Shown here: positions 18,780-63,282 of the stretch, piece by piece | Position numbering within the stretch: position 1 is the stretch's first letter | Layout: each line of letters starts with the position of its first letter | Virus record (IMG/VR): IMGVR_UViG_2687453683_000002 | Coordinates: 56,235-120,234 of that record | Direction: 5' to 3' (one strand) | Length of the DNA: 64,000 nucleotides | DNA from: a virus | Lineage: Duplodnaviria; Caudoviricetes | The notes under the pieces: generated by a model | The model's database searches: none | Seen by the model: only the letters and a program-made list of their open reading frames with translations | Told to the model about the DNA's origin: nothing | Made by a program: the position numbers and the translations under genes

Positions 18780-18857
18780 CGGGATGTGGAAAAGTTTGGA
18801 GTTCTCGCTTGCCTTGGAAGCAAGAGAACGCAGGTTCAAGTCCTGCCATTCCGACCA
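18780..18857 (+). tRNA. tRNA-Pro(UGG), phage-type
   Basis: Acceptor CGGGATG/CATTCCG, anticodon arm CTTGC-CTTGGAA-GCAAG, T arm GCAGG-TTCAAGT-CCTGC, encoded CCA. Confidence 0.85.
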
Positions 18858-18858
18858 T

Positions 18859-18933
18859 CGGGAAGTAGCTGAAATAGATTAGCGGCGGTGTGAAATACCG
18901 TAGATATTGGTGCGTTACCAACCTTTTCGACCG
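18859..18933 (+). tRNA. Degenerate tRNA-like gene with GAA (Phe) anticodon, probably a pseudogene
   Basis: Acceptor CGGGAAG/CTTTTCG, D arm GCT..AGC, anticodon arm GCGGT-GTGAAAT-ACCGT; non-canonical T loop and CCG end. Confidence 0.5.
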
Positions 18934-45522: not shown

Positions 45523-45525
45523 CTG

Positions 45526-46635: not shown

Positions 46636-46714
46636 ATCTTAGTTTTAGAAATCAAAAAGAGCTGAACCTAAAGAGAAATAGGGTCAGCTCCGTTTCAACA
46701 AGAATATGTGAAAA

Positions 46715-47611
46715 TCAATCGGCCATATTTGCCAAAGCATCCGCGACTCTCTTACGAATGAGCGAAACATAAGCCTCCATTTCTTGCAAATTTCCTGTAA
46801 CAATACTTTCGTAGTCTTTAAAGTTGCTCACCACATTTTTCGCATCTTCAAGAATAGCTTTTAGATCATTCTTCTTGAGCTGATTCTCAACCCCGTTCTC
46901 ACAAGCAGCCAGCGTTGAACGCAGATGATCCATCAATTTCCGAGTCACCATGTTTTTCATATCCAACGTGTTCATGACAGGAACCTTCTCTGCTTCCCCT
47001 TTTTCAAGAGAAACAATAAATCGGATCAGTGCATCCAAGTTCCCATCAAATTGTGCCGGAACAAAGTAGACACCTCCAGTTGGCCTTACTGGGGTTGGTG
47101 ACATACTCTTTAAAGCATTCGTAATCACGGTTCGCAATGTCGTAGAACCATAGTTGTTTCGGAAGATATCAAATTGCAGGGCAGCATTACTAACGAGTTG
47201 TTGCGCCATGGAAGAGACGTAACTGGCATCTACCTTCTCCGTTTTCCGATCCAATACTAGCGATCCTACATCCGGGATGTAGTTTAATCTTCTCCCTTTG
47301 GTATCCACCGTTTCGCAAACCAAATTACGTTGCACGAAAGAACTTGTCGATGCCACCTCTCTAAACATGTAGTTCTCATATACACCTGGCGACATCTCCC
47401 GTTTAAACTTTTCACTGGTCGCTCTTCTAAAAGCATCTGGTAGACGGATTGCATTCGGCATCCACCCTTCTCCCAGCCCTGAATCAATGAGTTTCTGTTT
47501 CAAGTCGTCAGGCGTGATTAGCATATTAGATAACGAGTTCCAGGTTAAGAATCCAATTGCATCTCCTTGACCAGCCGGAACCACAACAGCATCTTTTAAG
47601 ATTGAGTTCAT
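46715..47611 (-). CDS. DUF6744-like protein co-encoded with AAA+/vWA
   Basis: DAFRRAT and VRPTGGVYFVP motifs. Confidence 0.6.
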   Translation of the reverse strand: MNSILKDAVVVPAGQGDAIGFLTWNSLSNMLITPDDLKQKLIDSGLGEGWMPNAIRLPDAFRRATSEKFKREMSPGVYENYMFREVASTSSFVQRNLVCETVDTKGRRLNYIPDVGSLVLDRKTEKVDASYVSSMAQQLVSNAALQFDIFRNNYGSTTLRTVITNALKSMSPTPVRPTGGVYFVPAQFDGNLDALIRFIVSLEKGEAEKVPVMNTLDMKNMVTRKLMDHLRSTLAACENGVENQLKKNDLKAILEDAKNVVSNFKDYESIVTGNLQEMEAYVSLIRKRVADALANMAD

Positions 47612-47690
47612 AGTAAAGGCCTCCTCGTTTTTGGAATAAAGAAAAACACTTGAAAGTTGCTCAAGTGTTCAGATCAGATTTTATACTTGC

Positions 47691-48242: not shown

Positions 48243-48473
48243 CCTACCTTACCTCCTTTATCTGCAAAAGATATCCTACACGCTGGCAGTATTCCAAACG
48301 ACTCATCCTGCCTAACATGTAGTTATGAAAAACACGTTCAATTGAATGAGATACCGGCTCTGGACAAACTCTCCAATTATTTCTCACTTCATATCACTCT
48401 CCTTATTAAATTGAAAAGCCGATTTCTTCGCATGAGTGTACATGCATGAAATCGGCTTTCTGTATTGTTCAAG

Positions 48474-48914
48474 CTATACACGAAACATTTTCACTCTCGG
48501 TATAACGATTGAACTCTCATTCATTTGTTGTGTCAGGTCAGCAATATTGGATACCAACTGCTTTCGACCTTCTTCTCGTTCTTTAATGTCATCCAGCAAG
48601 TCTTGTCCAAAGACCATTACTTGCTGCACGCTTTGCCAAAAAGGTTGTCCTTTAAGGGCCTGCACATTCATTTCATTTCCGTCCGTTTTGTAGAAGAAAC
48701 TTTGAGTTGCCATATCGAAACGGACGGTATCACTGATTTTCACTTCTAGTTCAACGGTTCCCCATACTTCTCCAGCGACATAAACGGTTACTGCGGCCAT
48801 CATCTGAAGAAAGTCCACAGCATTTTTATGGCGTTTTTTCTCTTCATGAAGGAACCCACCTACTGCTGTATGAATCGCACTTTTCGCATTTTTACCTCTG
48901 AACAGATTAAACAT
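48474..48914 (-). CDS. Hypothetical protein, first gene behind leader copy A
   Basis: Start MFNLF at 48914 behind GAGAGGA, the same RBS context as the gene behind copy B. Confidence 0.65.
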   Translation of the reverse strand: MFNLFRGKNAKSAIHTAVGGFLHEEKKRHKNAVDFLQMMAAVTVYVAGEVWGTVELEVKISDTVRFDMATQSFFYKTDGNEMNVQALKGQPFWQSVQQVMVFGQDLLDDIKEREEGRKQLVSNIADLTQQMNESSIVIPRVKMFRV

Positions 48915-48918
48915 TTTA

Positions 48919-49268
48919 ACCATCCTCTCCATTTTTAATGAAACGCAAAAAAGCCGATCTCCGCACGGACGAATCCATGCAAAAATCGGCTTTTAGAACT
49001 CAAGTAACATTGCTTTTCCAAGAGCCTTTCGGTACTCTTCATTCCTTGTCTCCAGCAAACGGGAGTTGCGGAACTTCATTGGCCTTTGCCTTTTGTCCTA
49101 CATTTTTCCTCTCTTCATCAGAACGAAGCTGTAGGTTGAGGTAGTACTAAACTTGTTCTTTCGATACAAGTTACCCTGCTGTTATAAACCCTGTGAAGCG
49201 CAAAGTCAAAGCGTAGGGTATTCCCCTTGTCTCCAGCGAATGGGAGTTTAGGATTGAAGAATAATTAC
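48919..49268 (-). ncRNA. Structured 5' leader RNA with terminal attenuator hairpin, copy A
   Basis: Closely similar to 62889-63247; multiple stems, GAAA tetraloops, terminator before the RBS. Confidence 0.7.
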
Positions 49269-49274
49269 AATTTT

Positions 49275-49304
49275 ACTATACCATTGGAACACATGTTAGT
49301 TCAA
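49275..49304 (-). promoter_or_regulatory. Sigma-A promoter for leader copy A
   Basis: TTGAAC-18 bp-TATAGT with extended TG; the spacer contains GAACACATGTTA (one mismatch to a LexA box). Confidence 0.6.
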
Positions 49305-49401
49305 TAGTAAATCGAAATCATGCACATTCAGGATTTTTTTACCTGAACTCAAATGTTACGTCCGAGTTTCACATATTCTGGATCGCTAGACTGAAAGTCA
49401 A

Positions 49402-50058
49402 TTAGTAGTCATATGCTACTATAGTTAATCTGACCGATTGACACGACTCTGATTTCATTTCGATCACCTCAATTAGTTTATAGGTACAAAAAAAACGACC
49501 ACTAAAGGTCGTCTCTATCACAATTAATTCAATTTCTATTTGCTTATCCAAACTTTCCTTAACTTCGAGAGCAAATAAAGTCGCTTTCATTATCAAACTT
49601 TCTATATGCTTATATTCTAATAGATCTGGGTGATAATTTCTTGAGCTAGGGCTATCGGGATAAATATACGCATCATATATTAAGTCATGAAAGTGATGAG
49701 TTTGGTTTAGGAGTTCCTCAATCAAATTCATTGAAGGTTTAATAAAAAACTCGTTCACCCTAATATTTCGAATTACTGAACCACACTCATCTTGGACTTG
49801 ATCAGATATCTTTTGGAACTCTTCATGACTGATTTTTTTATTCTGAAACTCTTTTAAAGCTAAGCTTAGTTGCTCTAATTGTCTAGCTATAACATAAAGA
49901 CCGCGTTGTGTTTCCTGAATCTTATCAATTATGATCTTCTTCTTTATTAAGATCATCTCTGATCGATGACTCAGTTTATAGGTCAAGATACCACCAATTA
50001 ATACACCTACCACCCCTACTACTCCTGAGACCAATGCCCCTAATAACGTTATGTCCAA
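49402..50058 (-). CDS. Membrane-anchored helical hypothetical protein; native stop probably lost near 49510
   Basis: N-terminal TM; the frame runs through a terminator-like hairpin at ~49490-49515. Confidence 0.5.
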   Translation of the reverse strand: MDITLLGALVSGVVGVVGVLIGGILTYKLSHRSEMILIKKKIIIDKIQETQRGLYVIARQLEQLSLALKEFQNKKISHEEFQKISDQVQDECGSVIRNIRVNEFFIKPSMNLIEELLNQTHHFHDLIYDAYIYPDSPSSRNYHPDLLEYKHIESLIMKATLFALEVKESLDKQIEIELIVIETTFSGRFFCTYKLIEVIEMKSESCQSVRLTIVAYDY

Positions 50059-50282
50059 AAAATATCCCTCCCCCTTCTAATTCGACTTAAAATTTTTATT
50101 ATCCTTCTTTGAGTTAGTTTCAGTGTTTGGATGACCACTGTATTCGCGTGTACGCTCAATCAGTGCCTGTTCTACGCTCTCCAAATGACTGATCCCTGAA
50201 TCCGGACGTTCTCCATGACAAGAAGCTTAAAACGGCTGATAATCCATCATATGAGAGCAAAATAAGCACCACGATGGGTGCT

Positions 50283-51095
50283 CTACTTAGCAGGCAATTG
50301 GATCAAAGATTTCAAATCAAAAAATTTAATAAACTCTCTTCCAAATGGCGTTAAGACTATTTGTGTATTAGTAAGGGTTAGTCCTCTACCTTTCATCCCA
50401 CCTTTAGTTGAAACAACATTAGAGAAAGCAGAAACAATACTCTGTTGCACCTCACTAGTTGATCTAACTCCTTTATCAATAAGTCCTAATTTTTCGAGAT
50501 GATTCTCTATGTATTCATAGTATTTCACATCACTCCCTGGTACTTCTTCATACTCACTTGCTCTTCTTGCTGCTTGTTTCCCCTCTGATGAATATGTCAT
50601 TAGATGTTTAATTTCAGTAACTCTCAATTGCTTCAAGATATCAAAATGAATCAACACTTTATTTTCTTCAGTTATTTTCTGATCATAAATATATTCAATA
50701 CCATTCATAATCAAATCAGTTTTTTCTTCTTGTTGTTCTTCTAATAATTGATCTAACATGAATGGAAATGCTCTCTCCTTAAAAAATTGACTGACAAAAT
50801 CATCTGGTCTTTCCATCATGCTATCTGATAAGCGTTGAATTCTTAGTTCTAGATATTTTATTTTTTTTTGAAGTTCTCTCATTTTCAAAGAACTCAATAT
50901 CTTTCCCACTAAAGGTATATGATCCATAGTCCCCTCTATTGATACACCAAGAGCCGAGTCTGGGTCGATACCAAGAAATTTAGTTAGTGACGTTACGTTA
51001 TCCATCTCCATCTCCCTTTTCTTTATTTTATATCCTTGGAAACAAACCTGGTTTACTACAGAACTGCTTAACGCCGTCCCATCTACATTAAACAC
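50283..51095 (-). CDS. Hypothetical protein, Abi-alpha/DUF4393-like; true start probably near 51005-51011
   Basis: IPLVG near the N-terminus; C-terminal wHTH HLEKLGLI...LTPFGREFIKF. Confidence 0.45.
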   Translation of the reverse strand: MFNVDGTALSSSVVNQVCFQGYKIKKREMEMDNVTSLTKFLGIDPDSALGVSIEGTMDHIPLVGKILSSLKMRELQKKIKYLELRIQRLSDSMMERPDDFVSQFFKERAFPFMLDQLLEEQQEEKTDLIMNGIEYIYDQKITEENKVLIHFDILKQLRVTEIKHLMTYSSEGKQAARRASEYEEVPGSDVKYYEYIENHLEKLGLIDKGVRSTSEVQQSIVSAFSNVVSTKGGMKGRGLTLTNTQIVLTPFGREFIKFFDLKSLIQLPAK

Positions 51096-51385
51096 ATCCT
51101 TTGCATTTCTCTGGCTGCTTGTTTGGACAAATGCGATATTCTTACGCCCTATGCTGATACTTCAATTCCTCGACTAAAAAAGTCGATCCATCGAAGGAAC
51201 TGATATGTATGATGTTGGTGTTACGCTCTATAAGCATGCGTCCGAAAAGGTCGTAGCAAATGCGCAACGTTCTTTTCCTTAAAAGCAAACATACTTTTAA
51301 CTATAGAGGAAGCACAAGAGCATTAACTAGAAAAACAAAGTCAACTTATCAATTCATCTAATTCTCTCATGCCTTTCTAAATCAA

Positions 51386-51895
51386 TTATGCACTCGTCTT
51401 TACATCTCTCGGTTTCTTTGAAGCGGACAACTTTTCTTTCATTGTAAGCAACATCTCCACCAGTTCATCCCGAGCAATCAGCCTTACCCCATTTGATTTA
51501 GCAAGCTGATATGCCTGCTCAGTATAATTGCTATTCGTGACAACCCATGCTCCATTTGCTCTATAATGTGCCTTAGCTCCTTGAACCTCTTGAACAGCTT
51601 TTAAGCCAACATTTTTTTTATAACGTTTAGCTTGAACAACGATTCTTTTTCCATCTTTGGATATAACCAGATCGGCGCGATAATCACCTGCAGCTTTTGT
51701 CACTTCCGCCTTAAACCCTTGTGAACGGAATAGGTGCCCAAGATAGTGCTCAAACTGCACTCCATCCATTTTGTCGATCTCTGCAATACCTGATCTCTTC
51801 AGTCGTTCAGCATGCTTTTGTTGAATGATAACCGTTAAAACAATAATTCCAACAACTCCAAGAAATTCAACGACAAGTGAAGCTTGCCGTTTCAT
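51386..51895 (-). CDS. Mrr-like restriction endonuclease with N-terminal TM
   Basis: MDGVQFEHY, DYRADL, VVQAKRY, AVQEV, VVTNS. Confidence 0.85.
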   Translation of the reverse strand: MKRQASLVVEFLGVVGIIVLTVIIQQKHAERLKRSGIAEIDKMDGVQFEHYLGHLFRSQGFKAEVTKAAGDYRADLVISKDGKRIVVQAKRYKKNVGLKAVQEVQGAKAHYRANGAWVVTNSNYTEQAYQLAKSNGVRLIARDELVEMLLTMKEKLSASKKPRDVKTSA

Positions 51896-52235
51896 TCACG
51901 CCTTTTTCTATGCTCCTAATGTTCTGGGAGAATGTCTCGATACAACAACTAATAAGAATGAAAATGTAAAAGTGATGTACGTGATTCGGCAGATTAATAA
52001 GAGAGATTGGAGTATTTATACAATTGATTGAGAACTTCTTTATTTTTTTGTAAGAAAGCTTCTTAAAACGGGCTTTTATAATGTTATTTTGAATTTGGTC
52101 CAATGCTAATAGCTACCTATGTCGATTTTGCTGACTAATTAATTCTCGAAATTATTTTTTTAAAATACTTATCTATATGTGATTAAAAATGTAAAAAAAA
52201 GCCCATTCTGAGAAGAATGAACTTTTTTTTACATT

Positions 52236-52610
52236 TTACTCTTTCTTTCTGTAATCATAGACATCGTCAGGAACATTTAGTTTTACACCATTAATGGATA
52301 CAATATCGTTACTTTCCCAGATGATAGTCGCTTTTTCAACTTTATTTTGGAAATATATAATTTTATTTGGTTTTGAGCCATCATTGTACTGAAGTTCACA
52401 TAATATGGCTAACGAAGTTGTTGCTCCTGCATCAGAATTCATCGCCTTAATTGTAAATTTACCATCGGGTGAAACTGATTCTGATATAACTTCCCCTTTT
52501 GGAAGTCGTTCTAAGTCATAGTACCAATTCCACAAGGATACAAAAGCAATAGCTACTGCTAACACCAAAAAACTACTTATCAAAAAAACTTTTATCTTTT
52601 TACTTTTCAC
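52236..52610 (-). CDS. Membrane-anchored DUF5412-like protein, putative immunity
   Basis: N-terminal TM; SPDGK, AGATT, INGVKLN..D.YDYR; directly after the toxin gene. Confidence 0.7.
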   Translation of the reverse strand: MKSKKIKVFLISSFLVLAVAIAFVSLWNWYYDLERLPKGEVISESVSPDGKFTIKAMNSDAGATTSLAILCELQYNDGSKPNKIIYFQNKVEKATIIWESNDIVSINGVKLNVPDDVYDYRKKE

Positions 52611-52680
52611 TGAATCGTTCTTCCTCCAATCTCTACTAAAATAAAATATACCTCAAAAAATGAGGTATATTCCCATTATA

Positions 52681-53388
52681 TCATTTATTATCCGTATTAA
52701 ACATACTAATTCCCCATTCAATCATAGCTTGATCTTGGGGGTCGTCAAAATATGTTTTCCACCAAGAAGGGTGTGCTGTTCCTGAATATATCTGATAAGC
52801 ACCTGCTACGGACTTTAAAATGCTCGCTGGGAAAAGGTATCTACCTACATAGCCGTAGTGAATATTCCCAATATCCTCACCGGTGATAATCCTACCATTA
52901 AACTTATAACGTTTACTTACTCCATATTTAAGTTTGTAATCCCATGGGCCGCCACTCTTTACCTGAGAAGCAAAGTAAAGGCCAGCTCCAGCCAAATCAT
53001 TTGGATACATATACAACATTCGTAAGCCATTACCTCTCATTTGCTCCTTAAAAATATTCGTAATTTCTTGAATACTTCCCTCATCAGGATCTGCTTGAGG
53101 AGTTATTACACCACTACTTTCATACATTTGTATATAATTCAAAGTAGCTGTTGCTTCATCTAAAATTTTATTTATATCAAGGCCTTCAACATTACCATTA
53201 ATTAATGCTTGTTCTACTTGATTATGTTTACGTTGAACATCTTTTAACAATTTATCTGTAAAACGTTCAGAAACTGTGATATTTTGTTCTTTCGATTGTA
53301 AGTTTTGAGAAGCTGACACAGAATAAGGCGTGAGTAGAATTGATGCTGCGACTGTTCCAATAATTAAACTGGTAATTTTCTTTTGCAT
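52681..53388 (-). CDS. Secreted polymorphic toxin with Ntox44 domain
   Basis: Signal peptide ending VSA; GPWDYK, GNIHYGYVG, AGAYQ, DDPQDQ motifs. Confidence 0.85.
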   Translation of the reverse strand: MQKKITSLIIGTVAASILLTPYSVSASQNLQSKEQNITVSERFTDKLLKDVQRKHNQVEQALINGNVEGLDINKILDEATATLNYIQMYESSGVITPQADPDEGSIQEITNIFKEQMRGNGLRMLYMYPNDLAGAGLYFASQVKSGGPWDYKLKYGVSKRYKFNGRIITGEDIGNIHYGYVGRYLFPASILKSVAGAYQIYSGTAHPSWWKTYFDDPQDQAMIEWGISMFNTDNK

Positions 53389-53647
53389 TACAAAATTCCT
53401 CCTTATTAATTAATTACTTCATGTGTATTATAAACCAACTCATTTGTCGAAGTAAGGGGAATTTTGTATGTTTAACTCATAAATTTCATTTTTAAACTCG
53501 TTTATTGGAACGTTATTTATATTTAATTCTTTTTTATCATGACTTGCAAATGATTTGAGCAAACACCAGTTCCATTGTTATTTTCACAAACTTCTGGCAA
53601 TAAACCTTGACCATAAAATAATTGTTTATAAGTATTCAATGGTAACT

Positions 53648-54115
53648 TCAGAAATATAGCTTCTCCTTTCTCCATTGACCAGTCAAATCAATAAATGCTC
53701 CTTTAAATCTACCTAACTGAAGCTGGCGAATAGTCTCATCTTTGGGCATATGCATGATTCGTGACAAATCTCTGGATGTGTAGTAATCATCCACTTTAAA
53801 CTCCAGCGTAATTCCTACACTCATCTCATAAAAGAACATAAACAAGTGTTCACATGCTGTATGTCCTAATTTGCAGTTCCTCACTAGGTCGGTCCAATTA
53901 TATTTTGTTAGATCGCTTAATAAGATATTTACTCCAAAGGAACGTTGTAAGCACACCATAATTGACTTCGTTAATGGTGTAAGAAGCTGTTCACTACATC
54001 CATATAAATCCAAAGACATGAACGGGGCACGGAATGCAACGCTCTCCTGAATGGAAAACCCACGATCTGCCATCATTTTCAAATGAGATTTGAAAGCTTT
54101 GTACTCCATATCCAT
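53648..54115 (-). CDS. Putative regulator: RNA polymerase alpha-CTD-like domain plus C-terminal HTH
   Basis: LTKSIMVCLQRS...LSDL...DLVRNCKLGHTACEHL parallels the alpha-CTD helix-hairpin-helix; YTSRDLSRIM...GRFKGA...GQWR resembles HTH_17. Confidence 0.5.
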   Translation of the reverse strand: MDMEYKAFKSHLKMMADRGFSIQESVAFRAPFMSLDLYGCSEQLLTPLTKSIMVCLQRSFGVNILLSDLTKYNWTDLVRNCKLGHTACEHLFMFFYEMSVGITLEFKVDDYYTSRDLSRIMHMPKDETIRQLQLGRFKGAFIDLTGQWRKEKLYF

Positions 54116-54299
54116 CGTCGACCCTCACCTTACTATTTGTTTTTTTCCATATTCCATAACTTATGAATCTTCGCTTATAATGGTAAGTTATTACTGAATG
54201 ATATAGAAAAAGCGAAAGTAATGACGATACGACCTGTTGTTATTTGTAGCCGCATGCGTTACTCTCGCTTTTAACATAAGAACTTTCTTCTTCAGTTTA

Positions 54300-56300
54300 A
54301 AGTCTAATCGTTATTTTTATGGACTCCTTTTGCTTGATATGGCTGTAGGATTATTGAGCAACATCACGTATCCAATCCGCATTCATCGCAATCTCCTCAT
54401 CTGACATGTCAGCGATATTTTCCAGCCTCTTGAGCAATTCGTGTCGTTTCATAGTTTTCCTCATATTTCTTTTCCTTTGTTATACGCTTGCAATACCATT
54501 CGCGTTCGATGCCCACCATCCTGAATCACAGGAGTTTCCGGCCACCAACCAATGATATGATCCAGGTGATTACCGGGTTCTTCATAAAACTCCAATGTCT
54601 CATTCAACTGTGCAATGTGTGCAATGTTTCATTTATAACATCTAGCAGACATTCTCTTTCATCTAGCAGTTCTCCGACCATTGCGTTCCACGGTGCGCTT
54701 AAAAATGCATTTCTTAATCTCTTCTAAGTTTATACGGTATCAGTTCTAATTTCATACTCTGTCTCTCCATATTTTTCGGCAACTTCTCCCAAATGATTGC
54801 TCCTCGAGGATGTGTATAAGGAATCAGCTCCGGGTAAATTATTAAATTTTCAAATACCCATGCCCACGGTAACCAAGTATGCTGCTTCGGCACGCTGACG
54901 AGGCGTAGCTATGAACATACTTACTCTATGGTCTTGTGTATAAGAAACCAGTTCACCGTCACACACCCGATAGGATCATGCTCTATGATGTCACACTTAG
55001 ACACTCCAAATAGTGATGACTGTTTTTATTTATCGCAACCTCTGGTATAGCTAATGCATGGCTAGGATTCGTTGCAAAATCTCTTGCTGAAACGGAATAT
55101 GTTCCTTTAAGGATATTTCCCTTATGATGACGATCTTCTTTTGCACCCTGAAGCACTTCCATATATATTAAGTTTATTACTCATACCTTGTAGTTTACTC
55201 ATGGCCAGCCTCCGTTCTTTCTACTGACAGCAACGGAATATCAAGCACATCGTAAATATATATTTCAATATCACGGTATACAACCACGCTTTCATCGTCC
55301 GTACAACAATCCTTTGTTTTAAAAATTTTGGCTGAGGGTAAACGGGATGTGATCAGTTTGACCAGCTTGGAACGATTATTATCGTTGTCTACCAACTCCG
55401 GGCTACGTCCACCTTCTTTATAAACAATGTCCCAGTCCTCCTCGATCAGTTCCTGTATACGTTACTTGCGATTCTTTTTGTCTGTCTCAGGTGTCTTGCT
55501 GAACGTGTACAGGTGATCCAACATAAAGCAAAATCGAGCTTTATAGTGGCCGTATTCTGTAAATACCTCGTCAGACACATGAGGGAATCAGTATTGGTTC
55601 CACCAGTTAGAGACTGTAGATGCAAGAAACTGAAGTTGTTCCTTCAAACTGTCGATAGGTTTGTTCTCACCCAATTGTCTTTCAAGCTCACGAATACGGG
55701 CACTTGCCTCTCTAATCCGCAGATGTCGCTCTTCCTTCTCCTTAGTAAGACACTCTCATAGTTCAATTGCTTGGATACATCGCTGATATGACCTTCAATT
55801 AAACCGGACAGTATCCCGGCCATCTCCTGAGTCAAATTGTCCTTGCTGATCCAATCATGAAGTTGTTTGACAGCAAAAAACTTATACTTCAGCGTTTTAA
55901 TTGCAACTGACTTCTCATCAGCATTTAGGATAACTTTCATTTCATTTTCAATATTCAATCACCCTCCCTGATTTTGATGCTATATATTTTTCTTACTTTT
56001 AGACTGCGTTTGTATTCCAGCACGCTTATTTATGCTTTGGAGTTCTTTCATACTTAAAGCAATACTACTCGTCACTTTCCTATCTTCAATCTCGGGCAGC
56101 TTCACAAACTTCTGACTGCAAGGCACTTAGGCGAAAGTAGCGTTTTGACCATCATCTGCGATTACCTCATAGCCAATTGCTGTGTATCCATGTATCTTCC
56201 GACCATGCAATGTCTTCATCAGACTTACCACCTCTCTTTAAGACCGCCTAGCTGCACGCCACTCTGGTTTGCCGACAATATAGCCGACCAATCGCCCTCA
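54300..56300 (-). pseudogene. Tract of decayed genes (includes an ASCH/PUA-like fragment near 54780-54870 and a gene broken across ~55195-55958)
   Basis: Short broken frames; WVFENL..YPELIPYTHPRGAIIW fragment. Confidence 0.4.
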
Positions 56301-56303
56301 CGC

Positions 56304-56774
56304 TCACGTAAACGTTGTGACCCAAGTCTCCCTGATTGCTGTACACTCCACAACGGTTCTGTAGCAGCCCGTTCCAATTCCAACCGCAGTTTGTAACACG
56401 GTTATGGAAAGTGGCATAAGGAATCCCATTCTACTCAGCAAGCTGGACGTATTCTTTGGGAAGCACACGTACACATTCTGATGCTTAAGAGCTTGTTCTC
56501 GTATTTCTTCTGAAGTTTGTAGCAGCTTCATTGCTGCCTGCTCCATCTTCCACCCTAATCTGATCCGATTGTAGAACGTGTTCTTGTTTATTCCGTTTTC
56601 TAATGCAATCTGTAGCCACTTCCGACGATTCGTGAATCCTCGCAGTGGTGTTGTCATCGCACGTTCTTTCGTCCAGCCTTGTGCACGAATTCGACGATCC
56701 AGCATGGCAGGCTTTATTCCTATTTTCTCAGCCTCAACATATTCTTCAGGCGTGATGTAAAACCAATGACTCAA
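56304..56774 (-). CDS. Phage-type small repeat DNA-binding protein, probably frameshifted in the 3' half
   Basis: Repeated A..(N/I)GI......RIR..GW..E.A units. Confidence 0.55.
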   Translation of the reverse strand: MSHWFYITPEEYVEAEKIGIKPAMLDRRIRAQGWTKERAMTTPLRGFTNRRKWLQIALENGINKNTFYNRIRLGWKMEQAAMKLLQTSEEIREQALKHQNVYVCFPKNTSSLLSRMGFLMPLSITVLQTAVGIGTGCYRTVVECTAIRETWVTTFT

Positions 56775-56982
56775 CGTCTCGTCCTCCTTTTAAACTAAAT
56801 AAATCCCCAGTCTAAGCAACTGGGGATTTATACAATATTTCATCTTCACTTCACCTGTTTTAACTGACGCAATGTAATACTCTTTAAGACTTCAGAAGAA
56901 GCACTAAGCATCAAACCAGCAATCCAACGTTCCTTCGTTGTCTTACTCAAAAGCTGTTTCAAATACCGCTCCTTTGCTGACA

Positions 56983-57504
56983 TCACATCATCCCCAATTG
57001 CTTCAGGGATACAAATCCCTCAACACCAACGATAATATGGTCCAGTACGTTAATATCAACAATTGCACCGGCATCATATAACCGTTTAGTGACCTTGATA
57101 TCTTCCTGGCTCGGAGTTGGATCACCTGAAGGATGATTATGCACACAGATAATAGAAGCTGCATTCTTTAAAATTGCTTTTCTAAATAATTCTCTAGGGT
57201 GCACTATAGCAGCATTTAATGTCCCAATCCCTATCGTTTCCTTAGAAATAACACGATTCTTAACATTCAGCATGATTGCAACAAAATGCTCATTAGGAAG
57301 GGATGACATCTCAGCAGCTACGAGCTGATACACATCTTCAGGCTTTCTAATCTCACTAGGAACATCTTCTTGCATTACTCGCTCCACCAGTTGTAATAAC
57401 TTTTCAGCGTGTTCACGTCTTCGTCGAGGCAAAGAAGCCAATTGAGTTTCATTTACCGAGAAGTTTTTCATATATTCCCCTTTCTGTTTATCCCGACCCC
57501 GCAA
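56983..57504 (-). CDS. radC: RadC (JAB/MPN domain) protein
   Basis: EHF, VHPRE, HNHPSGDPTPSQED, LDHII. Confidence 0.9.
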   Translation of the reverse strand: MRGRDKQKGEYMKNFSVNETQLASLPRRRREHAEKLLQLVERVMQEDVPSEIRKPEDVYQLVAAEMSSLPNEHFVAIMLNVKNRVISKETIGIGTLNAAIVHPRELFRKAILKNAASIICVHNHPSGDPTPSQEDIKVTKRLYDAGAIVDINVLDHIIVGVEGFVSLKQLGMM

Positions 57505-57578
57505 TGGCGGTGTCGGAATTAAACACCGCCATTTATTGCCAGGCGAAAGGCTATTTTGAATTAGTTTGTCGTGTCGAA

Positions 57579-57857
57579 CTACACTTTGCGAGAAGCAAAA
57601 CGTTTAGTCTCTTTCAACGTACCATACCCGGACAAGGAAACGTCCTCCCAACCAAGTTTTTTCAGCGCAGTTGAAGAAAGACTCAGGTAATCCCAAGCAT
57701 TTTTCCCTTCCGCTGTGATCGCCACCGCAAGTTCACGCAATCCATCAGGTTTAAAAGACCAGCTTCTGGTATTGCTGTACTCCCAAACTTTATCCGCAGC
57801 TTGAAGTGCTCCATTTTCATCAACATAAGTCTTCAAACATTCTTTCATCTGTTTCAA
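57579..57857 (-). CDS. Hypothetical protein, possibly a gene fragment
   Basis: 92-aa ORF; the upstream sequence looks like a broken N-terminus. Confidence 0.4.
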   Translation of the reverse strand: MKQMKECLKTYVDENGALQAADKVWEYSNTRSWSFKPDGLRELAVAITAEGKNAWDYLSLSSTALKKLGWEDVSLSGYGTLKETKRFASRKV

Positions 57858-58023
57858 TGCAGCCTCGGTTCTTTCGATTTCTAACGCGATCTGGATTGCC
57901 TTCTCTATTGTTAATTTTTCATGTATTTGTATTTGTCATATATAACACTCCTCAAGTTTTTGTTTTTTTGTAATGCAGAAGACAAATATTTTCCAAGGGA
58001 ATAATTCGTCATTTTATACGCAC

Positions 58024-58245
58024 CTATAACTTTTTATAGATGTAGCCATTGGTGGAAAGGTGAAGGCCACAGGTTGTTATTGCAATCCCATTAAGACCCG
58101 TGTCGAAGTTCTGAACAACTTCAAACCCCTTACTTTCCAAATATCGCCTGGCTTCTGTCCCGTCGAGATCAGCAAAACATTGATAGTTATGATCTACAAT
58201 GAATTCTCCTGACTCAGCAGCATTAATGATTTCGTCTTTCGTCAT
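58024..58245 (-). CDS. Hypothetical protein
   Basis: 73 aa with GGAGGG RBS. Confidence 0.6.
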   Translation of the reverse strand: MTKDEIINAAESGEFIVDHNYQCFADLDGTEARRYLESKGFEVVQNFDTGLNGIAITTCGLHLSTNGYIYKKL

Positions 58246-58272
58246 ATTTTTATCCCTCCAAAATACATTTTC

Positions 58273-58974
58273 TCAAAGCTTTATACATTCCATTACAAAC
58301 GGGCAATGTTTGCAGGGACTACCCGGTGTAGGTCGAAAAAGCGAAGAAGCCATATCCGGGAATGATTCCAGACATGACTTCTTCATTTCAATCTGCTCCG
58401 CAAGCTGAATGGCCCATTCTCTAGCCTGGTTTCCATCAGATTCGTTGTAAATAAACGATTCTGCTTTCCGAAACCGTAGAAAAAACAATGTGCCTTTGAC
58501 TTGACGAAGACCTCTCATTTTCATAGTGGCCCATGCGTACAAAGCAAGCTGCCTTGTATCATGGACCCCGTAAAGTTTCCAATTCGACTTCCAATCCCAG
58601 AAATGTACTTCCTGAAGCAAATCAATGTACCCCTGAAGCTGGATTCCGGACGAAGAGTCCAACGGAAGATTAAAATGAATCTCCGTTTGACCCTTTACAT
58701 CAGGAGCCTGCTGAAGCAACTTCAAAACTTCTTCATAAGTCACTTCGGGATGAAAATCGGCTTCGATTATAGCTGCCAAGATCGCTTCATGTTCAGACAT
58801 ACCATTGATTTTTAGCTCAATCGCCTTATGCACTGCTTTACCGAGAGCGAGTGGTTTTGTAACCGGCTCTGGTCTACCCAAAATATACTTCATATAGAAG
58901 CGAAATGGGCAAGTTTCATACAGGGAAAGTCGTGAGTATGAGAAGATCATGTGATTCCCAAGTATGTTTGGCAT
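58273..58974 (-). CDS. PD-(D/E)XK (RecB/Cas4-like) exonuclease with Cys cluster
   Basis: SYSRL..YETCP, GKAVH, GYIDL, DWKS, QLALY, CKHCPF...C. Confidence 0.85.
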   Translation of the reverse strand: MPNILGNHMIFSYSRLSLYETCPFRFYMKYILGRPEPVTKPLALGKAVHKAIELKINGMSEHEAILAAIIEADFHPEVTYEEVLKLLQQAPDVKGQTEIHFNLPLDSSSGIQLQGYIDLLQEVHFWDWKSNWKLYGVHDTRQLALYAWATMKMRGLRQVKGTLFFLRFRKAESFIYNESDGNQAREWAIQLAEQIEMKKSCLESFPDMASSLFRPTPGSPCKHCPFVMECIKL

Positions 58975-59378
58975 AGGTTCTTAGCAGCATCCACCTTTTT
59001 AGCTACAACATCACTTTGAACAGTGATATCCTGCTGTAAATGATGCTTGGCAATGAGTAAGAAAGCTATGACGGCCTGATCATAAGGATATGCGCTTGTT
59101 TTACAGAACTGAAAATATTGATCATTTTCATCGGGCTCATTCCATAGATACAACACCCGTGGAAAAACAAAGTCTTCATACCTATCTGCACCCACACCAT
59201 TAAATAGCAGATTGTCTTCATTAATAACGGGATCTCCTGTTCCTCCTGGACCAGCAAGTAACACTCCTACCCCTGCGAATACAGGTAACAAACGTTTAAA
59301 GTCAGTCAGAATTTTAAGATACACATCGAGTTCGATCTCCCTTACTCGATACCAGAAATGGGTATATCCCATATTCAT
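58947..59378 (-). CDS. Conserved mobile-element hypothetical protein
   Basis: MGYTHFW N-terminus and FCKT..YPYD motif. Confidence 0.6.
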   Translation of the reverse strand: MNMGYTHFWYRVREIELDVYLKILTDFKRLLPVFAGVGVLLAGPGGTGDPVINEDNLLFNGVGADRYEDFVFPRVLYLWNEPDENDQYFQFCKTSAYPYDQAVIAFLLIAKHHLQQDITVQSDVVAKKVDAAKNLCQTYLGIT

Positions 59379-59410
59379 TCACTCCTATTTAAATGAGAGT
59401 TTGTCGGTTT

Positions 59411-59863
59411 TTAGAATGGTAAGTCATCATCTGGAATTCCCCAGTCATCGCTTGCCGTGTTCGTTCCACGACCGTTTCCACTGTTTCCGTTCTGTTGATT
59501 TCCTGTCCCCGGTCTTGAATCGTTTGAAGAAGTAGTACCACCAGACTGAGGAGTGAGGAATCTAACGTTGTCGGCAATGATTTCAGTTACATAAACACGT
59601 CTACCCTCGTTATTTTCATAGTTTCGTACTTGAATACGCCCTTCGACTGCAGCCATATGCCCTTTTTTCAAATGGTTTGCACAAGCCTCAGCAAGTTGTC
59701 TCCAAGTAACAACAGGAATGAAATCCGCTTCTCGTTCTCCACCTTGACTAGTAAAAGGTCTATCCACTGCCAAAGTAAATTGCGTAACGGCCACTCCAGC
59801 GGGAGTATATCGCAGCTCAGGATCACGAGTCAGACGACCAATCAAAATTACACGATTCAACAT
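59411..59863 (-). CDS. ssb: Single-stranded DNA-binding protein
   Basis: [20 protein letters not shown]...DDDLPF. Confidence 0.97.
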
Positions 59864-60549
59864 TTTTCTCCTCCGTCCATGCCTGCCTTTGTAGGTTCAG
59901 GACTTACAGGTTTCGTTTTAAACTGGTCCACAAATCGCTCGACATCCTCTGTCCACTTTGGACGGGAGGCACAAGAGTAGATTTGTAGTACACTTTCAAG
60001 GAGAGGCGATTCAATCTCTCGCTCTCGTTGTCTGATTTTTTCAATGTAGTTCTGATACGTACAGGTTTTGATCCCCACAATTAATTGAAAATAGGCATCT
60101 CGCTGCTCCTTCATCAGAAACTCTTTCCATGAGTCCCAAAACAGATCAAGGGAACGCATATAATACGAGAAATCCCGTTCCCTCATCTGCTTCCAGTTTG
60201 GTTCTCTCACGCCAGTATGTTCTCTCAGCAACCTTCGCTGATTTTGGCTGAGACGCTCGGCAGGATGAATAATTCTCCGTTTTCGGAATCGTTGTTTTAC
60301 GTTCTCCTCCGGGATATTTTCCAACAGAGAAATAAAGCGAAAAACACCACCACTCTCATTACAAAACCAGCATTTGAACACTTGGTCTTTGCTATTGAGA
60401 GAAAGGTAGTATCTTCGCTTTTTACTTGGCTTTGAATCCTCATGACAGAAAGGACACTTACACGCCACTTCTTCCCTTGATCTGGAGTGTGGATTGATCT
60501 GCAGACCATGTTGTTCAGCAATGGCCACAATATCAGGAAGCATGATCAA
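59857..60549 (-). CDS. CHC2 zinc-finger (primase ZBD-like) protein
   Basis: CPFCHED...FKCWFC..SGG; no TOPRIM domain evident. Confidence 0.75.
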
Positions 60550-60865
60550 TCACAGCTCGTATCATTTCCTCCTGGCTGGGCGGAAGCTGAATCTGTTCCC
60601 AATCCGGGGAAAGAACAATTTTGCGTGTAACCGTATGAATCGTTTTTTCTGGTTCCCACCATTGCCAACGGCGATATAGCTCGGCTGCCACCTGAACATG
60701 TTTACATTCCTTTTGTCCATAGTGACAAGCTGGGCAATCGTGAGTGATGATAAGGTCATTGAAATGAGGTTCAGCTTTGACCAAATAAACACCATTGTTC
60801 CGACTAGAAGGGAATACACAGATTAGTGTGTTCCCGTCTGTAAACGTAGCGTTCACTTTCGTCAT
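60533..60865 (-). CDS. SWIM-type zinc-finger protein
   Basis: HDCPAC...CKHV. Confidence 0.65.
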   Translation of the reverse strand: MTKVNATFTDGNTLICVFPSSRNNGVYLVKAEPHFNDLIITHDCPACHYGQKECKHVQVAAELYRRWQWWEPEKTIHTVTRKIVLSPDWEQIQLPPSQEEMIRAVIDHAS

Positions 60866-61773
60866 GCCGCTTCACCTACAATCGCAATTGATTTCACCAT
60901 CTTGAATCCATTGTTCATTTCAAATTCAATTTTGAATTGTGAGTTATTTGATAGTGCATTAATTTGTTCAATCGTCACTGGCGTATTGGCAAGTACCACA
61001 GACTCTTCACCCGTTGCAATATTAACCACTCGTAATTTAGCGAAGGTAACGCCTCCTGGAGAAACTCCTGTTGCCATATCCAGCATTCTATACAATTCTC
61101 CTGAACTTGAAGTAGCAGGCTTAGTCGAAGTCGCATCCTTCTGTCCTTTTTTCTCTGAAGAACCTGATTGGGTACTCGAAGTGCTACCAGAAGAAGGTTT
61201 CTTTTTATTTTGTTGAGTGGATTGAACAGGTTCCCCTACTTCGATTCGCTCCGCATCTTCAACGGTTTCAATCTCGCTTTCATCCATCATGCCAAGCCCC
61301 GATAGAGATAACGTTACTCTTCGTTTTGCCTTCGTTTCGGCCTTCATGATGGCGTTGGCAAGTTCATCTGCAGTTAATGGGAGAATTCGGCCTGTAGGTA
61401 CTTTTCGATTCCTCATCTCGTCCCATAACTTCTCTTCTTTGGTCAGCGAGACAGCACCAATGGATTCATCGGTCCGGCCATCTTGAGTTGTTCCGCGAGC
61501 GGTCACACAGTAAACGTCACCCACCTTTTCACGGCTTGTGATCGTAATACTGATATTTTGTATTTTACGAAGCTGGTCTGTAGCGTCACGCTTGGCATAC
61601 AGTACAAGCTTCCCGTCCAGTTTCAAATAATCGAATGGTTTTGTCAGGGGATTCAGTCCTACACTCTCACAAACCTTGGTATAGTACACAAACCTTTCCT
61701 CTGGTTTGAGTGATGATAAATCTCCTTGAATAACGACCTTTTCCATAATCGACAAATCCATAACTTCAGCCAT
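60862..61773 (-). CDS. Single-strand annealing recombinase (RecT/Bet-like)
   Basis: C...GLNPL.K, MKAETKAKRR motifs; located in an ssb/exonuclease operon. Confidence 0.65.
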   Translation of the reverse strand: MAEVMDLSIMEKVVIQGDLSSLKPEERFVYYTKVCESVGLNPLTKPFDYLKLDGKLVLYAKRDATDQLRKIQNISITITSREKVGDVYCVTARGTTQDGRTDESIGAVSLTKEEKLWDEMRNRKVPTGRILPLTADELANAIMKAETKAKRRVTLSLSGLGMMDESEIETVEDAERIEVGEPVQSTQQNKKKPSSGSTSSTQSGSSEKKGQKDATSTKPATSSSGELYRMLDMATGVSPGGVTFAKLRVVNIATGEESVVLANTPVTIEQINALSNNSQFKIEFEMNNGFKMVKSIAIVGEAA

Positions 61774-61787
61774 CGTTGCTCAGCTCC

Positions 61788-61976
61788 TTATTTTAATTTG
61801 GGATCTACAAACGTCTGTTGAACGAGCTTATCCAAATTACTCCAGATCGTTGTCACCTCACGTTTTAACGATTCAGGTGCTTCCGCGATTAAATCATCCA
61901 AGAGCGAAAGTGCTTCCTCCAAAGTGGCTTGAACATTTAAAACAACATTAGTATCAGGTTTCAACATAAGATTCAT
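61788..61976 (-). CDS. Small hypothetical protein
   Basis: 62 aa with AAGGA RBS, just after the terminator at 62001-62050. Confidence 0.55.
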   Translation of the reverse strand: MNLMLKPDTNVVLNVQATLEEALSLLDDLIAEAPESLKREVTTIWSNLDKLVQQTFVDPKLK

Positions 61977-62074
61977 CGTCCTTTCAAAGGTTTTATAAAA
62001 TGCAAAAAACCGAGCTTCACATGAAATGACTCATGCAAAAATCGGTTTTTAAATCAACATTATTCTATTTTGAA

Positions 62075-62419
62075 CTAACCCAGCATTGAGGTTGCAGCTT
62101 GCTCATCAATAATCGGCTGCACTCCAATAATCTTTAAGGCTTTAAATACTTTAGACAATGAATCAGGCTGTATGTCACATCCGAAATTCGAATGCACAAG
62201 TCCAGCTTGAATCACTTTAATGTCTTCTAGCGGAACTCCCGCAAGATCAGCAAGTTGTTGCTGCGTGTAACCCAATTCCAGTTGTCTTGCTAGAATCATC
62301 TGTCCGACAGCAACTTCAGGACCATCCAGATACTCTGTAGCTCCCGGAATTTCTCTAACCTCAGCTTTTAGCTGTTCAAAATCCCTTTTTAAATGACTGT
62401 ATTTATTCATCCATTTCAT
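62075..62419 (-). CDS. XRE HTH antitoxin (HigA-like)
   Basis: ARQLELGYTQQQLADLAGV; overlaps the toxin stop. Confidence 0.7.
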   Translation of the reverse strand: MKWMNKYSHLKRDFEQLKAEVREIPGATEYLDGPEVAVGQMILARQLELGYTQQQLADLAGVPLEDIKVIQAGLVHSNFGCDIQPDSLSKVFKALKIIGVQPIIDEQAATSMLG

Positions 62420-62885
62420 CCCCTTGTGAAAAAATGTGTTTCTCTGGAGATTTTATAAACGCAATATACTGTTCTTCTGACTTTTTTATTAATTGTTCAA
62501 ATTCTTCAGAGTAGGTCCTGGCTTTTACTGTAGCCTGAGTAAACACCAGCATTTGAACATCTTCTAACGAATATTCAAAACATATCGCTCTAAACGCTCC
62601 AGCACCTCTCCAGTTCACACGGAATTCAAGAAGTGGTGGATGATCTCTAAGCTCTTTGATGACTCGGATAGTATATAACGAGTTGCCTTCCAGGGAAGTC
62701 GTAAAAAATTCAGTCATGGAACGAATCATTCCCCTTTTTTCCACAAACTCAAGGGCTTGAAAAATAAGCTCAGCAAGTTGAGTGAAAAGTGGATCAGCTT
62801 TTGCTCTTTGAATCAATTCCTGCAAGCAAAGCTTAACCTGAGCCTTCCCTTCTTCATCCTTCAAAAACCAAATGACTGTCTCCAT
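62403..62885 (-). CDS. RelE/HigB (Gp49-like) toxin
   Basis: IKEL...LLEFRV...FRAICF...LVFTQATVK; toxin-first order. Confidence 0.6.
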   Translation of the reverse strand: METVIWFLKDEEGKAQVKLCLQELIQRAKADPLFTQLAELIFQALEFVEKRGMIRSMTEFFTTSLEGNSLYTIRVIKELRDHPPLLEFRVNWRGAGAFRAICFEYSLEDVQMLVFTQATVKARTYSEEFEQLIKKSEEQYIAFIKSPEKHIFSQGDEMDE

Positions 62886-62888
62886 TAT

Positions 62889-63247
62889 ACCATCCTCTCA
62901 ATTTTAATTAAAACGCAAAAAAGCCGATCTCCGCACGGAAGAATCCATGCAAAAATCGGCTTTAAAACTCAATAACATTGCTTTTCCAAGAGCCTTTCGG
63001 TACTCTTCATTCCTTATCTCCAGCAAACGGGAGTTGCGGAACTTCATTGGCTTTGCCTTTTGTCCTACATTTATCCTCTCTTCATTTCTGTCTTCATCAG
63101 AACGAAGGTGTAGGTTGAGGTAATACACTAGACTTGTTCTTTCGAAACAAGTTACCCTACTTTATAACTCTGTGAAGTGCATAGTCCAAAGCGTAGGGTA
63201 TGACCCTCTTCTCCAGCGAATGGGAGTTTAGAGTTGGAAAAATTAAC
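62889..63247 (-). ncRNA. Structured 5' leader RNA with terminal attenuator hairpin, copy B
   Basis: Closely similar to 48919-49268; closing stem TTTTCCAA/TTGGAAAA, several internal hairpins, long terminator. Confidence 0.7.
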
Positions 63248-63253
63248 AATTTC

Positions 63254-63282
63254 ATTCTAGCACATGTTTATGAGTAGTACAA
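63254..63282 (-). promoter_or_regulatory. Sigma-A promoter for leader copy B
   Basis: TTGTAC-17 bp-TAGAAT with extended TG. Confidence 0.65.

Follow-up and report, generated by a model that had tools for sequence, protein, structure and literature searches.

A structured leader RNA with a one-sidedly constrained terminator arm at operon heads of giant Paenibacillus prophages

The window analysed here is the whole stretch of 64,000 nucleotides (nt) at positions 56,235 to 120,234 of the IMG/VR virus record IMGVR_UViG_2687453683_000002, a 120-kb provirus (Caudoviricetes) with true virion genes, including those for a tape measure (1963 bits) and for structural proteins. Its host is Paenibacillus, and Bacillus phage 0305phi8-36 and Moorella phage MTATph1 are distant relatives of the element. 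On the minus strand of the window lie two copies of a non-coding leader, A and B, each of about 330 nt and composed of a sigma-A-like promoter, a structured RNA of about 270 nt and a terminator. The terminators are the 3' ends of this conserved RNA, and their 5' arm has been kept almost unchanged among related elements while its pairing partner has drifted. The leader represents a new leader-RNA family of giant Paenibacillus prophages, with 28 unique copies, covariation in its helices and no match in Rfam. The original prediction, made from the letters of the window, concerned four terminators with a shared 5' arm; it overlooked the structured leader RNA, the unrelated terminators within the operons and the early gene for a NusG paralogue in relatives.

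The leader RNA and the hairpins of the window

The 14-mer CCGATTTTTGCATG occurs exactly on the minus strand at 48976-48989, 62032-62045 and 62946-62959 in a search of the window, and a variant of this shared arm, GCCGATTTCATGCATG, at 48441-48456, all as originally located. Allowing up to two mismatches gives three matches, against 0.66 expected; one of 100 shuffled sequences also reached three. Every one of the four sites is the 5' arm of a long sense-strand hairpin of 19-21 bp with 2-4 G-U pairs; these hairpins are named T1A, T1B, T2 and T4 (Table 1). The U-tract said to follow each of them is present as UUUUUU directly 3' of T1A, T1B and T2, whereas the tail of T4 (CUUUUCAAUUU) is weaker. 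The 3' arms had been quoted correctly and do differ, and the idea that they pair via G-U only on the transcribed strand agrees with the antisense folds of T1A, T1B and T2 (-19.4, -18.7 and -15.0 kcal/mol), which are 5-12 kcal/mol poorer than the sense folds; it does not extend to T4, whose folding is almost strand-symmetric (antisense -23.0 kcal/mol). Having a stable sense stem-loop and a U tract, T1A, T1B and T2 are predicted intrinsic terminators. A terminator scan listed T1A and T1B, and did not list T2 and T4.

The four hairpins are not four independent terminators with one arm, as had been supposed. T1A and T1B lie in a duplicated non-coding segment (48919-49261 and 62889-63241; 85-97% identity by block, 88% overall) and are therefore not independent of each other. 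T2 is the relic terminator of a third leader that has lost its promoter and body. Leaders fall into classes a, b and c, defined by the gene that follows, and T2 is taken for a leftover leader end because first genes of the c type precede it and a first gene of the b type follows it. About 18 nt of its upstream flank are still leader-like; b-type leaders match the flanks of T2 no better than other types do, so its assignment to the b operon rests on the downstream gene. The two genes in front of T2, for a 160-amino-acid (aa) protein and a 114-aa helix-turn-helix (HTH) protein (62075-62885, minus strand), look like a moved two-gene cassette, which heads a 12-kb operon in the related genome G004; neither protein has a confident family match.

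T4, which stands after the first gene of operon a, has the base of its stem (AAAGCCGAUUU...AAUCGGCUUU) in common with T1 and a different upper stem. Its counterpart in another locus (L015) differs from it on both arms, and T4 belongs to a related family of terminators in which both arms evolve. The claim that in both operons a second terminator with the same arm follows the first one or two genes is right as to position, T2 standing after two genes and T4 after one, but T4 keeps only the stem base. In the four further relatives that were searched, the arm with no or one mismatch is confined to leader terminators; a second terminator with the same arm is thus peculiar to the lineage of the window and its near relative G001.

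The leader segment contains no open reading frames, and its fold surpasses that of shuffled sequence (z-score -3.78 for leader A and -4.02 for leader B). Promoters at the same place upstream of homologous leaders align with the promoter of leader A, and in all aligned leaders the terminator lies immediately in front of the first gene's ribosome-binding site. Rfam 15 gave only two tRNAs and no leader match over the whole window at gathering score, nothing relevant over leader A at E up to 10, and, at E up to 1, nothing relevant in five further leader loci.

A leader structure was drawn by hand and tested on an alignment of 16 leaders (copy A and 15 homologues). In the drawn structure 90.9% of the alignment cells are paired, compared with 34-51% when the partners are slid, and 16 pairs vary on both sides, in 56 cells; none of 500 shuffles equalled the covariation score. 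The RNA comprises two units of like build, at least one variable hairpin, a possible pseudoknot, a hairpin termed H5 and the terminator. Both units have a stem, an internal loop, a second stem and a loop, followed by GGAGAYAAG. Five of the seven pairs of unit 2 vary on both sides, one of them being UA in nine leaders and CG in seven, another CG in ten and UA in six. In the pseudoknot region helix 6 covaries (GC in seven leaders and AU in six at one pair), as does helix 7. The helix CCURYA/URYAGG covaries; the helix that crosses it, CCUC/GAGG (helix 5), is invariant, and covariation gives no verdict on it. Together the two may form an H-type pseudoknot. H5 (helix 10) is completely paired in all 16 leaders, and four of its six pairs are invariant. 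In the terminator seven pairs are constant, eight vary on one side only and two on both.

With a strong promoter, a conserved structure and a terminator predicted to be efficient, the leader might be a free-standing small RNA gene ended by T1, the arm being part of the functional RNA, for instance as a site that binds a protein or a target. Three copies would then provide a high dose, and the leader body is conserved well beyond the needs of a spacer. However, the leader always immediately precedes the ribosome-binding site of a long operon's first gene and leaves no space for another promoter, the arm is enclosed in a 20-bp helix, and a search of the element revealed no complementary targets; such a gene is improbable.

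For the arm counts, leaders were sampled by a probe for H5 and not by the terminator, a 20-mer being used for the genome sets. Leader-type matches to the probe were obtained in 8 of 53 genomes of the genus and 11 of 401 genomes of the family. In metagenomes the H5 18-mer gave 25 matches, of which seven were leaders (six distinct) and 18 lacked leader features; its single match in viral contigs (L099) lies in a coding region without leader features and was discarded. Viral contigs also contained no match to the unit motif and no relative of the DUF6744 protein, whose gene lies behind leader A, and isolated phages and plasmids showed no DNA match to window positions 48400-50400. A search with the DUF6744 gene led to 12 loci from named Paenibacillus genomes, nine of them with a leader upstream (68-91% identity). 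The leader family was found in 11 related Paenibacillus genomes and six metagenome contigs, and the related elements have one to three copies, all on one strand. Leaders A and B of the window group together in the tree, and the leaders of genomes G003-G006 group by operon class; the A/B grouping points to a recent conversion or duplication between leader copies in the window lineage. Such leaders are not mentioned in the literature searched, including the accessible part of the 0305phi8-36 genomics paper (PMC2147016), which cannot prove the RNA undescribed, and a literature search found no paper on DUF6744. No RNA sequencing run was listed as containing the sequence. A weak Rfam match to BsrG lies near the c-type leader of G003 (L086 2267-2546, plus strand; E 0.0065, 26.4 bits against 55).

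Unequal change in the two arms of the leader terminator

Arm changes were counted in 28 unique leaders by parsimony on a tree built from the leader body; G1b was left out of the leader alignment for a run of N, and M108 as a duplicate. The 5' arm has six distinct sequences and changed six times, whereas the 3' arm has 19 distinct sequences and changed 49 times, every one of its changes being A/G opposite U or C/U opposite G. For a pairing-only null model, evolution was simulated along this tree and every change was accepted as long as a standard pair remained; the 5' arm then received 23.8 changes on average and never fewer than 10, so that none of 3255 runs had six or fewer. When the observed range of hairpin energies was imposed in addition, the mean was 22.7, and again none of the runs (1258) had six or fewer. 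The unequal change of the arms is thus strongly confirmed among homologues, and the proposal that the 5' arm is constrained beyond pairing is supported. The arm is kept in the leaders of homologous elements; its absence there would have refuted the original prediction.

These numbers bear on the simplest alternative, in which the arm has no second function and a U/G-rich sequence merely pairs with either purine or pyrimidine, perhaps with some selection for stability. Pairing alone would indeed permit every change seen in the 3' arm. Yet neither simulation ever gave as few 5'-arm changes as observed, both arms differ between the two lineages of the T4 family, and other helices of the leader vary on both sides, so that this explanation is scarcely credible.

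Three of the six changes in the 5' arm fall in the six leaders of G004 and G002 (L024, L028, L017), genomes in which no NusG paralogue was found; this may be a weak hint of relaxed constraint. In the genome G017 a leader-like body (L074) has a different upper stem and was left out of the arm counts, its terminator not being alignable; it counts against a strict universality of the arm.

The second partner originally envisaged was a trans-acting RNA or protein that opens all the terminators together. An antisense RNA pairing with the 5' arm would suit an arm that is identical at all leader terminators and constrained beyond pairing. A G-U-tolerant search for the complement YYRTGYRRRRRTYGG covered the 120-kb record, which is incomplete, a head of about 40 kb lying outside its reach; it returned the terminators' own arms and one extra exact site, on the strand opposite an open reading frame of 2227 aa, where 0.2 exact sites were expected. 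With one mismatch there were nine matches against 5.05 expected, and seven of these are arms of the terminators themselves or the motif's complement on the other strand. As YYRTGYRRRRRTYGG is exact only in the terminators and at that one site of the record, a complementary RNA acting in trans is very improbable.

Within the leader, too, no conserved partner of the arm was found: folding the alignment truncated in front of the 3' arm gave none, and the partners predicted for the individual sequences vary over the 23 leaders. Pairing of the arm with the first 15 columns of the leader, predicted in 8 of these 23, was rejected because the central G varies to A uncompensated, leaving about 4 bp, and is probably the transcription start. 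Pairing with the block AUGCAGGA (5 of the 23) was also discarded, the block not being kept in b-type leaders. The upstream segment complementary to the terminator that marks a zipper attenuator thus has no conserved counterpart in the 23 leaders.

In T-box and RAT/ANTAR leaders many terminators share a 5' side that serves a second structure or a bound factor. The leaders described here differ from these in having no T-box match in Rfam and no conserved alternative hairpin, and genes with the ANTAR domain (PF03861) were found in only two of five relatives, where they lie either on another contig or some 1 Mb away from the leaders; the CAT_RBD domain was not searched for.

Three further features of the arm were considered and set aside. 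A small open reading frame starting from an AUG inside the arm has, by eye, 20 codons in copy A, 13 in the leader G3a and 2 in G2a. The motif UUUGC is common to the loops of both units and to the arm, but the unit-2 loops of b- and c-type leaders keep only YGC, and it is merely a lead. An antisense promoter across the arm was represented, by eye, by weak hexamers only.

Operon genes, the head of the element and candidate factors

Table 1. Features of the two leader loci in the 64,000-nt window
Feature	Position	Strand	Description
Promoter of leader A	49275..49304	-	TTGAAC, 18 nt, TATAGT; TG before -10; 9/12 matches (promoter scan)
Leader copy A, ~320 nt	48949..49268	-	Probable start at G of TTGTAA; end = T1A
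Unit 1	49224..49253	-	Stem/internal loop/stem/loop, end GGAGACAAG; helices 1 and 2 100% paired
Possible H-type pseudoknot	49097..49141	-	CCUC/GAGG crossing CCUACA/UGUAGG; enclosed hairpin, A-rich linker
Unit 2	49043..49072	-	Second copy of unit-1 architecture; helices 8 and 9 100% paired
Hairpin H5	49021..49038	-	AGAG-UA-CC GAAA GG-CUCU; GAAA tetraloop, UA bulge
T1A hairpin	48949..48994	-	Closes leader A; -31.0 kcal/mol, 21 bp, 4 G-U
T1A arms	48990-48975 (5'); 48968-48953 (3')	-	5' arm = GCCGATTTTTGCATGG
First gene of operon a	48474..48914	-	~146 aa from conserved MFNLF start; no family match
T4 hairpin	~48412..48460	-	-24.9 kcal/mol, 19 bp, 2 G-U
Terminator T5	47644..47670	-	Sequence unrelated to T1; ~30 nt before DUF6744 gene
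Promoter of leader B	63254..63282	-	TTGTAC, 17 nt, TAGAAT; TG before -10; by eye, below scan threshold
Leader copy B	62919..63247	-	88% identical to copy A; end = T1B
T1B hairpin	62964-62919	-	Closes leader B; -31.2 kcal/mol, 20 bp, 4 G-U
160-aa gene	62403-62885	-	Between T1B and T2; 65% identical to first gene after G004 c-type leader
114-aa HTH protein gene	62075-62419	-	Between T1B and T2; 70% identical to second gene after G004 c-type leader
T2 hairpin	~62005..62052	-	-20.4 kcal/mol, 20 bp, 4 G-U
62-aa gene	61788-61976	-	Downstream of T2; homologous to first gene after b-type leaders

In other genomes, a-type leaders are followed immediately by homologues of the gene that comes first in operon a. 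Further downstream, a hairpin unrelated in sequence to the leader terminator, with a T-rich stretch after it, precedes the DUF6744 gene by 25-30 nt in all seven a-type loci read, T5 being the one in the window. In the replication operon the terminator scan predicts several more terminators, and T2 sits between the promoter of leader B and the operon of replication genes without a leader of its own. Because of these further terminators inside the operons, expression needs a read-through that is independent of the arm.

After T5 the DUF6744 gene forms a trio with the genes for a MoxR-type AAA+ ATPase and a VWA-domain protein (44155-47611, minus strand); DUF6744 homologues with 26-30% identity are encoded by Bacillus phage 0305phi8-36 and Moorella phage MTATph1. 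The operon of leader A also includes the gene for a protein of 2076 aa that carries RHS repeats and the domain DUF6531 (35526-41756, minus strand). Elsewhere in the window there are two adjacent tRNA genes on the plus strand (18780-18854 and 18859-18930, the second with 32.8 bits against an Rfam threshold of 29) and, at 19331-20737 on the minus strand, the gene for a 468-aa protein with a Schlafen/AlbA_2 domain.

The record stops at base 64000 of the window, and its homology to G001 continues to this last base; the head of the element is therefore not visible in it. In G001 and G003 the co-directional array runs about 42 kb further upstream and there reaches a CI-like and a Cro-like gene that face each other. 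In G001 this continuation to the CI/Cro-like head lies on contig C6 of P. barcinonensis (315600-359000; L132, L140-L142), and many GATTAAT-type repeats, which are likely operators, are present between the CI-like and Cro-like genes (G001:C6 358386-358606, L142). The third gene after the Cro-like gene encodes, in both G001 and G003, a protein of 277-283 aa with an N-terminal NusG domain (Pfam scores of 30.7 and 36.3 bits in the two proteins scanned, cut-off 22.2). This NusG paralogue is encoded in seven of ten leader-bearing genomes tested, on the same strand as the leaders and 38-78 kb upstream of them, at the head of a syntenic array. To our knowledge the NusG paralogues described so far come from plasmids and from gene clusters of chromosomes and are not early phage regulators, though no literature search was made on this point.

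Another gene accompanies the leaders more closely. It encodes a 288-aa bS1-like protein with S1 domains (E 1e-30 to bS1 chains) and lies 1-3 kb upstream of a leader in seven of ten genomes searched and in the query genome G004; it was not found in the genomes G062, G017 and G183. The upstream region of G004 has genes for bS1-like, type IV coupling-protein-like, Replic_Relax-like, RecA and prepilin-peptidase-like proteins, a mix unusual for a tailed phage.

The bS1-like protein is a candidate binder if the leader is a local attenuator or riboswitch, in which a ligand or an RNA-binding protein would attach to the leader, its single-stranded 5' arm included, and block only the T1-type hairpin, the other terminators being leaky or followed by separate promoters. 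A complex conserved RNA with a possible pseudoknot and an invariant hairpin would be expected of such a device, as would the sequence-specific constraint on the arm; the long G-U-rich stem resembles those of switching terminators, and the neighbourhood of the bS1-like gene fits as well. However, the 23 leaders have no conserved segment complementary to the arm, T2 has lost its leader body and retains the arm, the T5 terminators, which lack the arm, stand before the DUF6744 gene in seven of seven loci, Rfam gave no riboswitch or T-box match, and in the three genomes named above the bS1-like gene was not found. An attenuator confined to the leader is rather unlikely on this evidence.

The leader as a possible loading site for an antitermination factor

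The explanation preferred here, tentatively and at somewhat less than an even chance, is a processive antitermination like that of LoaP, in which the leader would be the loading platform, the leader terminator the checkpoint and the phage NusG paralogue the factor. From the observed leader family and its structure, the asymmetry of the arms, the extra terminators and the NusG paralogue of the relatives, we infer that the paralogue may act on the leaders, that its effect may be processive and that the arm may have a role in it, each of these being a step of its own. A leader with a strong sigma-A-type promoter would head each of two or three long co-directional operons. Without the phage factor, RNA polymerase would halt at the long G-U-rich hairpin and only the leader would be made. 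After induction, the early protein with the NusG N-terminal domain would be loaded onto the polymerase during transcription of the leader, and the loaded polymerase would resist both the leader terminator and the internal ones (T2, T4, T5 and others). The T-rich 5' arm would be read a second time in loading, either as a pause or recognition signal in the non-template DNA or as a signal in the nascent RNA; the 3' arm would need only to pair with it and could drift by A/G and C/U changes. Reading of the non-template strand by a protein of the NusG family would constrain one arm only. The trans-acting protein of the original prediction is plausible in this form, working via RNA polymerase rather than by simple opening of hairpins.

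The LoaP system of the dfn and mln operons of Bacillus velezensis, as described in the available text of PMC12691694, has a 417-nt leader, a near-identical small tetraloop hairpin in both target leaders and a pause site; its leader terminator is called an 'initial regulatory checkpoint', and further internal terminators are read through. As far as the parts available of PMC12691694 and PMC7819879 allow the comparison, the prophage leaders resemble it in being long; hairpin H5, near-invariant in all 16 aligned leaders, and the NusG-domain protein of relatives may correspond to its small tetraloop hairpin and its NusG-family protein. The leaders also resemble it in having a terminator before the first gene (in all aligned leaders) and internal ones behind it (T5 in seven of seven a-type loci; T2 and T4). 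The two systems differ in that the leader body is far more elaborate here, with its two repeated units and possible pseudoknot, the 5' arm of the terminator is itself constrained in sequence, and the setting is a giant temperate phage instead of an antibiotic gene cluster.

RfaH recognises ops, and NusG of B. subtilis recognises TTNTTT, both in the non-template strand, according to the accessible portion of PMC7819879. RfaH is similar in principle to what is proposed for the paralogue, being a NusG paralogue that is loaded in leaders through a short one-strand sequence of non-template DNA at a pause and stays on over long operons (same source, to the same extent). Unlike ops, the signal in the prophage, if there is one, would lie inside a terminator hairpin.

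In phage lambda, N/nut and Q/tR' provide one signal at phage operon heads and a nearby terminator passed only by modified polymerase, and the antiterminator gene adjoins the immunity switch. The prophages resemble lambda in the repeated signal at operon heads, in the terminator close downstream and in the position of the candidate factor gene beside the immunity switch; they differ in having no N or Q homologue, a NusG-like candidate factor and a structured RNA of about 270 nt.

Several observations weigh against antitermination by the NusG paralogue. T4, in the same operon as T1A, does not keep the arm, and the arm has five consecutive T and matches TTNTTT at five of six positions. The terminator stems have 16-20 bp, whereas stems of more than 14 bp resist antitermination by conAn of plasmid pLS20 (PMC10325885). 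The H5 loop is GAAA with a UA bulge and not UNCG as in LoaP leaders in the available text of PMC12691694. In three of the ten leader-bearing genomes tested (G004, G002 and G062) the paralogue was not found, and G004, in which the array is cut short, still has three leaders. The record of the window itself contains no NusG-domain gene, as expected from its early end. The two proteins of 277-283 aa score only 29.7 and 28.6 bits with the LoaP model NF033641, far below its cut-off of 125, and the NusG model gives the paralogue 33.4 bits against 135.7; no KOW domain was detected in it, and an AlphaFold2 model built from a four-sequence alignment is poor (predicted local distance difference test score, pLDDT, 50.7). 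The co-occurrence of paralogue and leaders is not independent evidence, because both belong to one element.

A bolder form of the proposal has the 5' arm as a one-strand loading signal inside the terminator hairpin, read on the non-template DNA or the nascent RNA, with the paralogue boarding at the checkpoint; together with the pseudoknotted leader of about 270 nt it would form two or three identical gates, from which more than 100 kb of a giant temperate phage would be switched on by an antitermination system of an undescribed kind. This stronger version is doubtful.

The put RNA of phage HK022 and conAn2 of pLS20 act in cis on the polymerase that made them, and the leader RNA might likewise bring about processive antitermination without a factor. 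A structured RNA immediately downstream of the promoter, several terminators within the operons and leaders in multiple copies at operon heads would agree with this, and conAn2 is a similarly large RNA element in the part available of PMC8191782. But an RNA that antiterminated constitutively in cis would have no use for a strong terminator of its own, the arm's constraint would be left unexplained, and long stems resist conAn (PMC10325885); antitermination by the RNA alone is quite unlikely. More generally, pLS20, with conAn and the zipper attenuator cATT, resembles the prophages in a long leader and a terminator before a very long operon of a Gram-positive mobile element and in a large antitermination RNA, to judge from the available parts of PMC8191782 and PMC13401043. 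By the descriptions in these partial texts, conAn2 differs in lying downstream of the conAn1 gene and not before the first gene, and the cATT zipper in needing an upstream segment complementary to the terminator, of which none is conserved here.

A terminator arm with six changes, set against 49 in its partner, is a natural experiment that shows a terminator sequence being read a second time. As a tool for Firmicutes, the leader could be combined with its terminator and the factor into a tight, orthogonal gate of gene expression. If antitermination by the NusG paralogue is the right explanation, a structured RNA would be linked to a NusG paralogue encoded by a phage, and the RNA family would gate the long operons of little-known giant temperate phages distantly related to 0305phi8-36.

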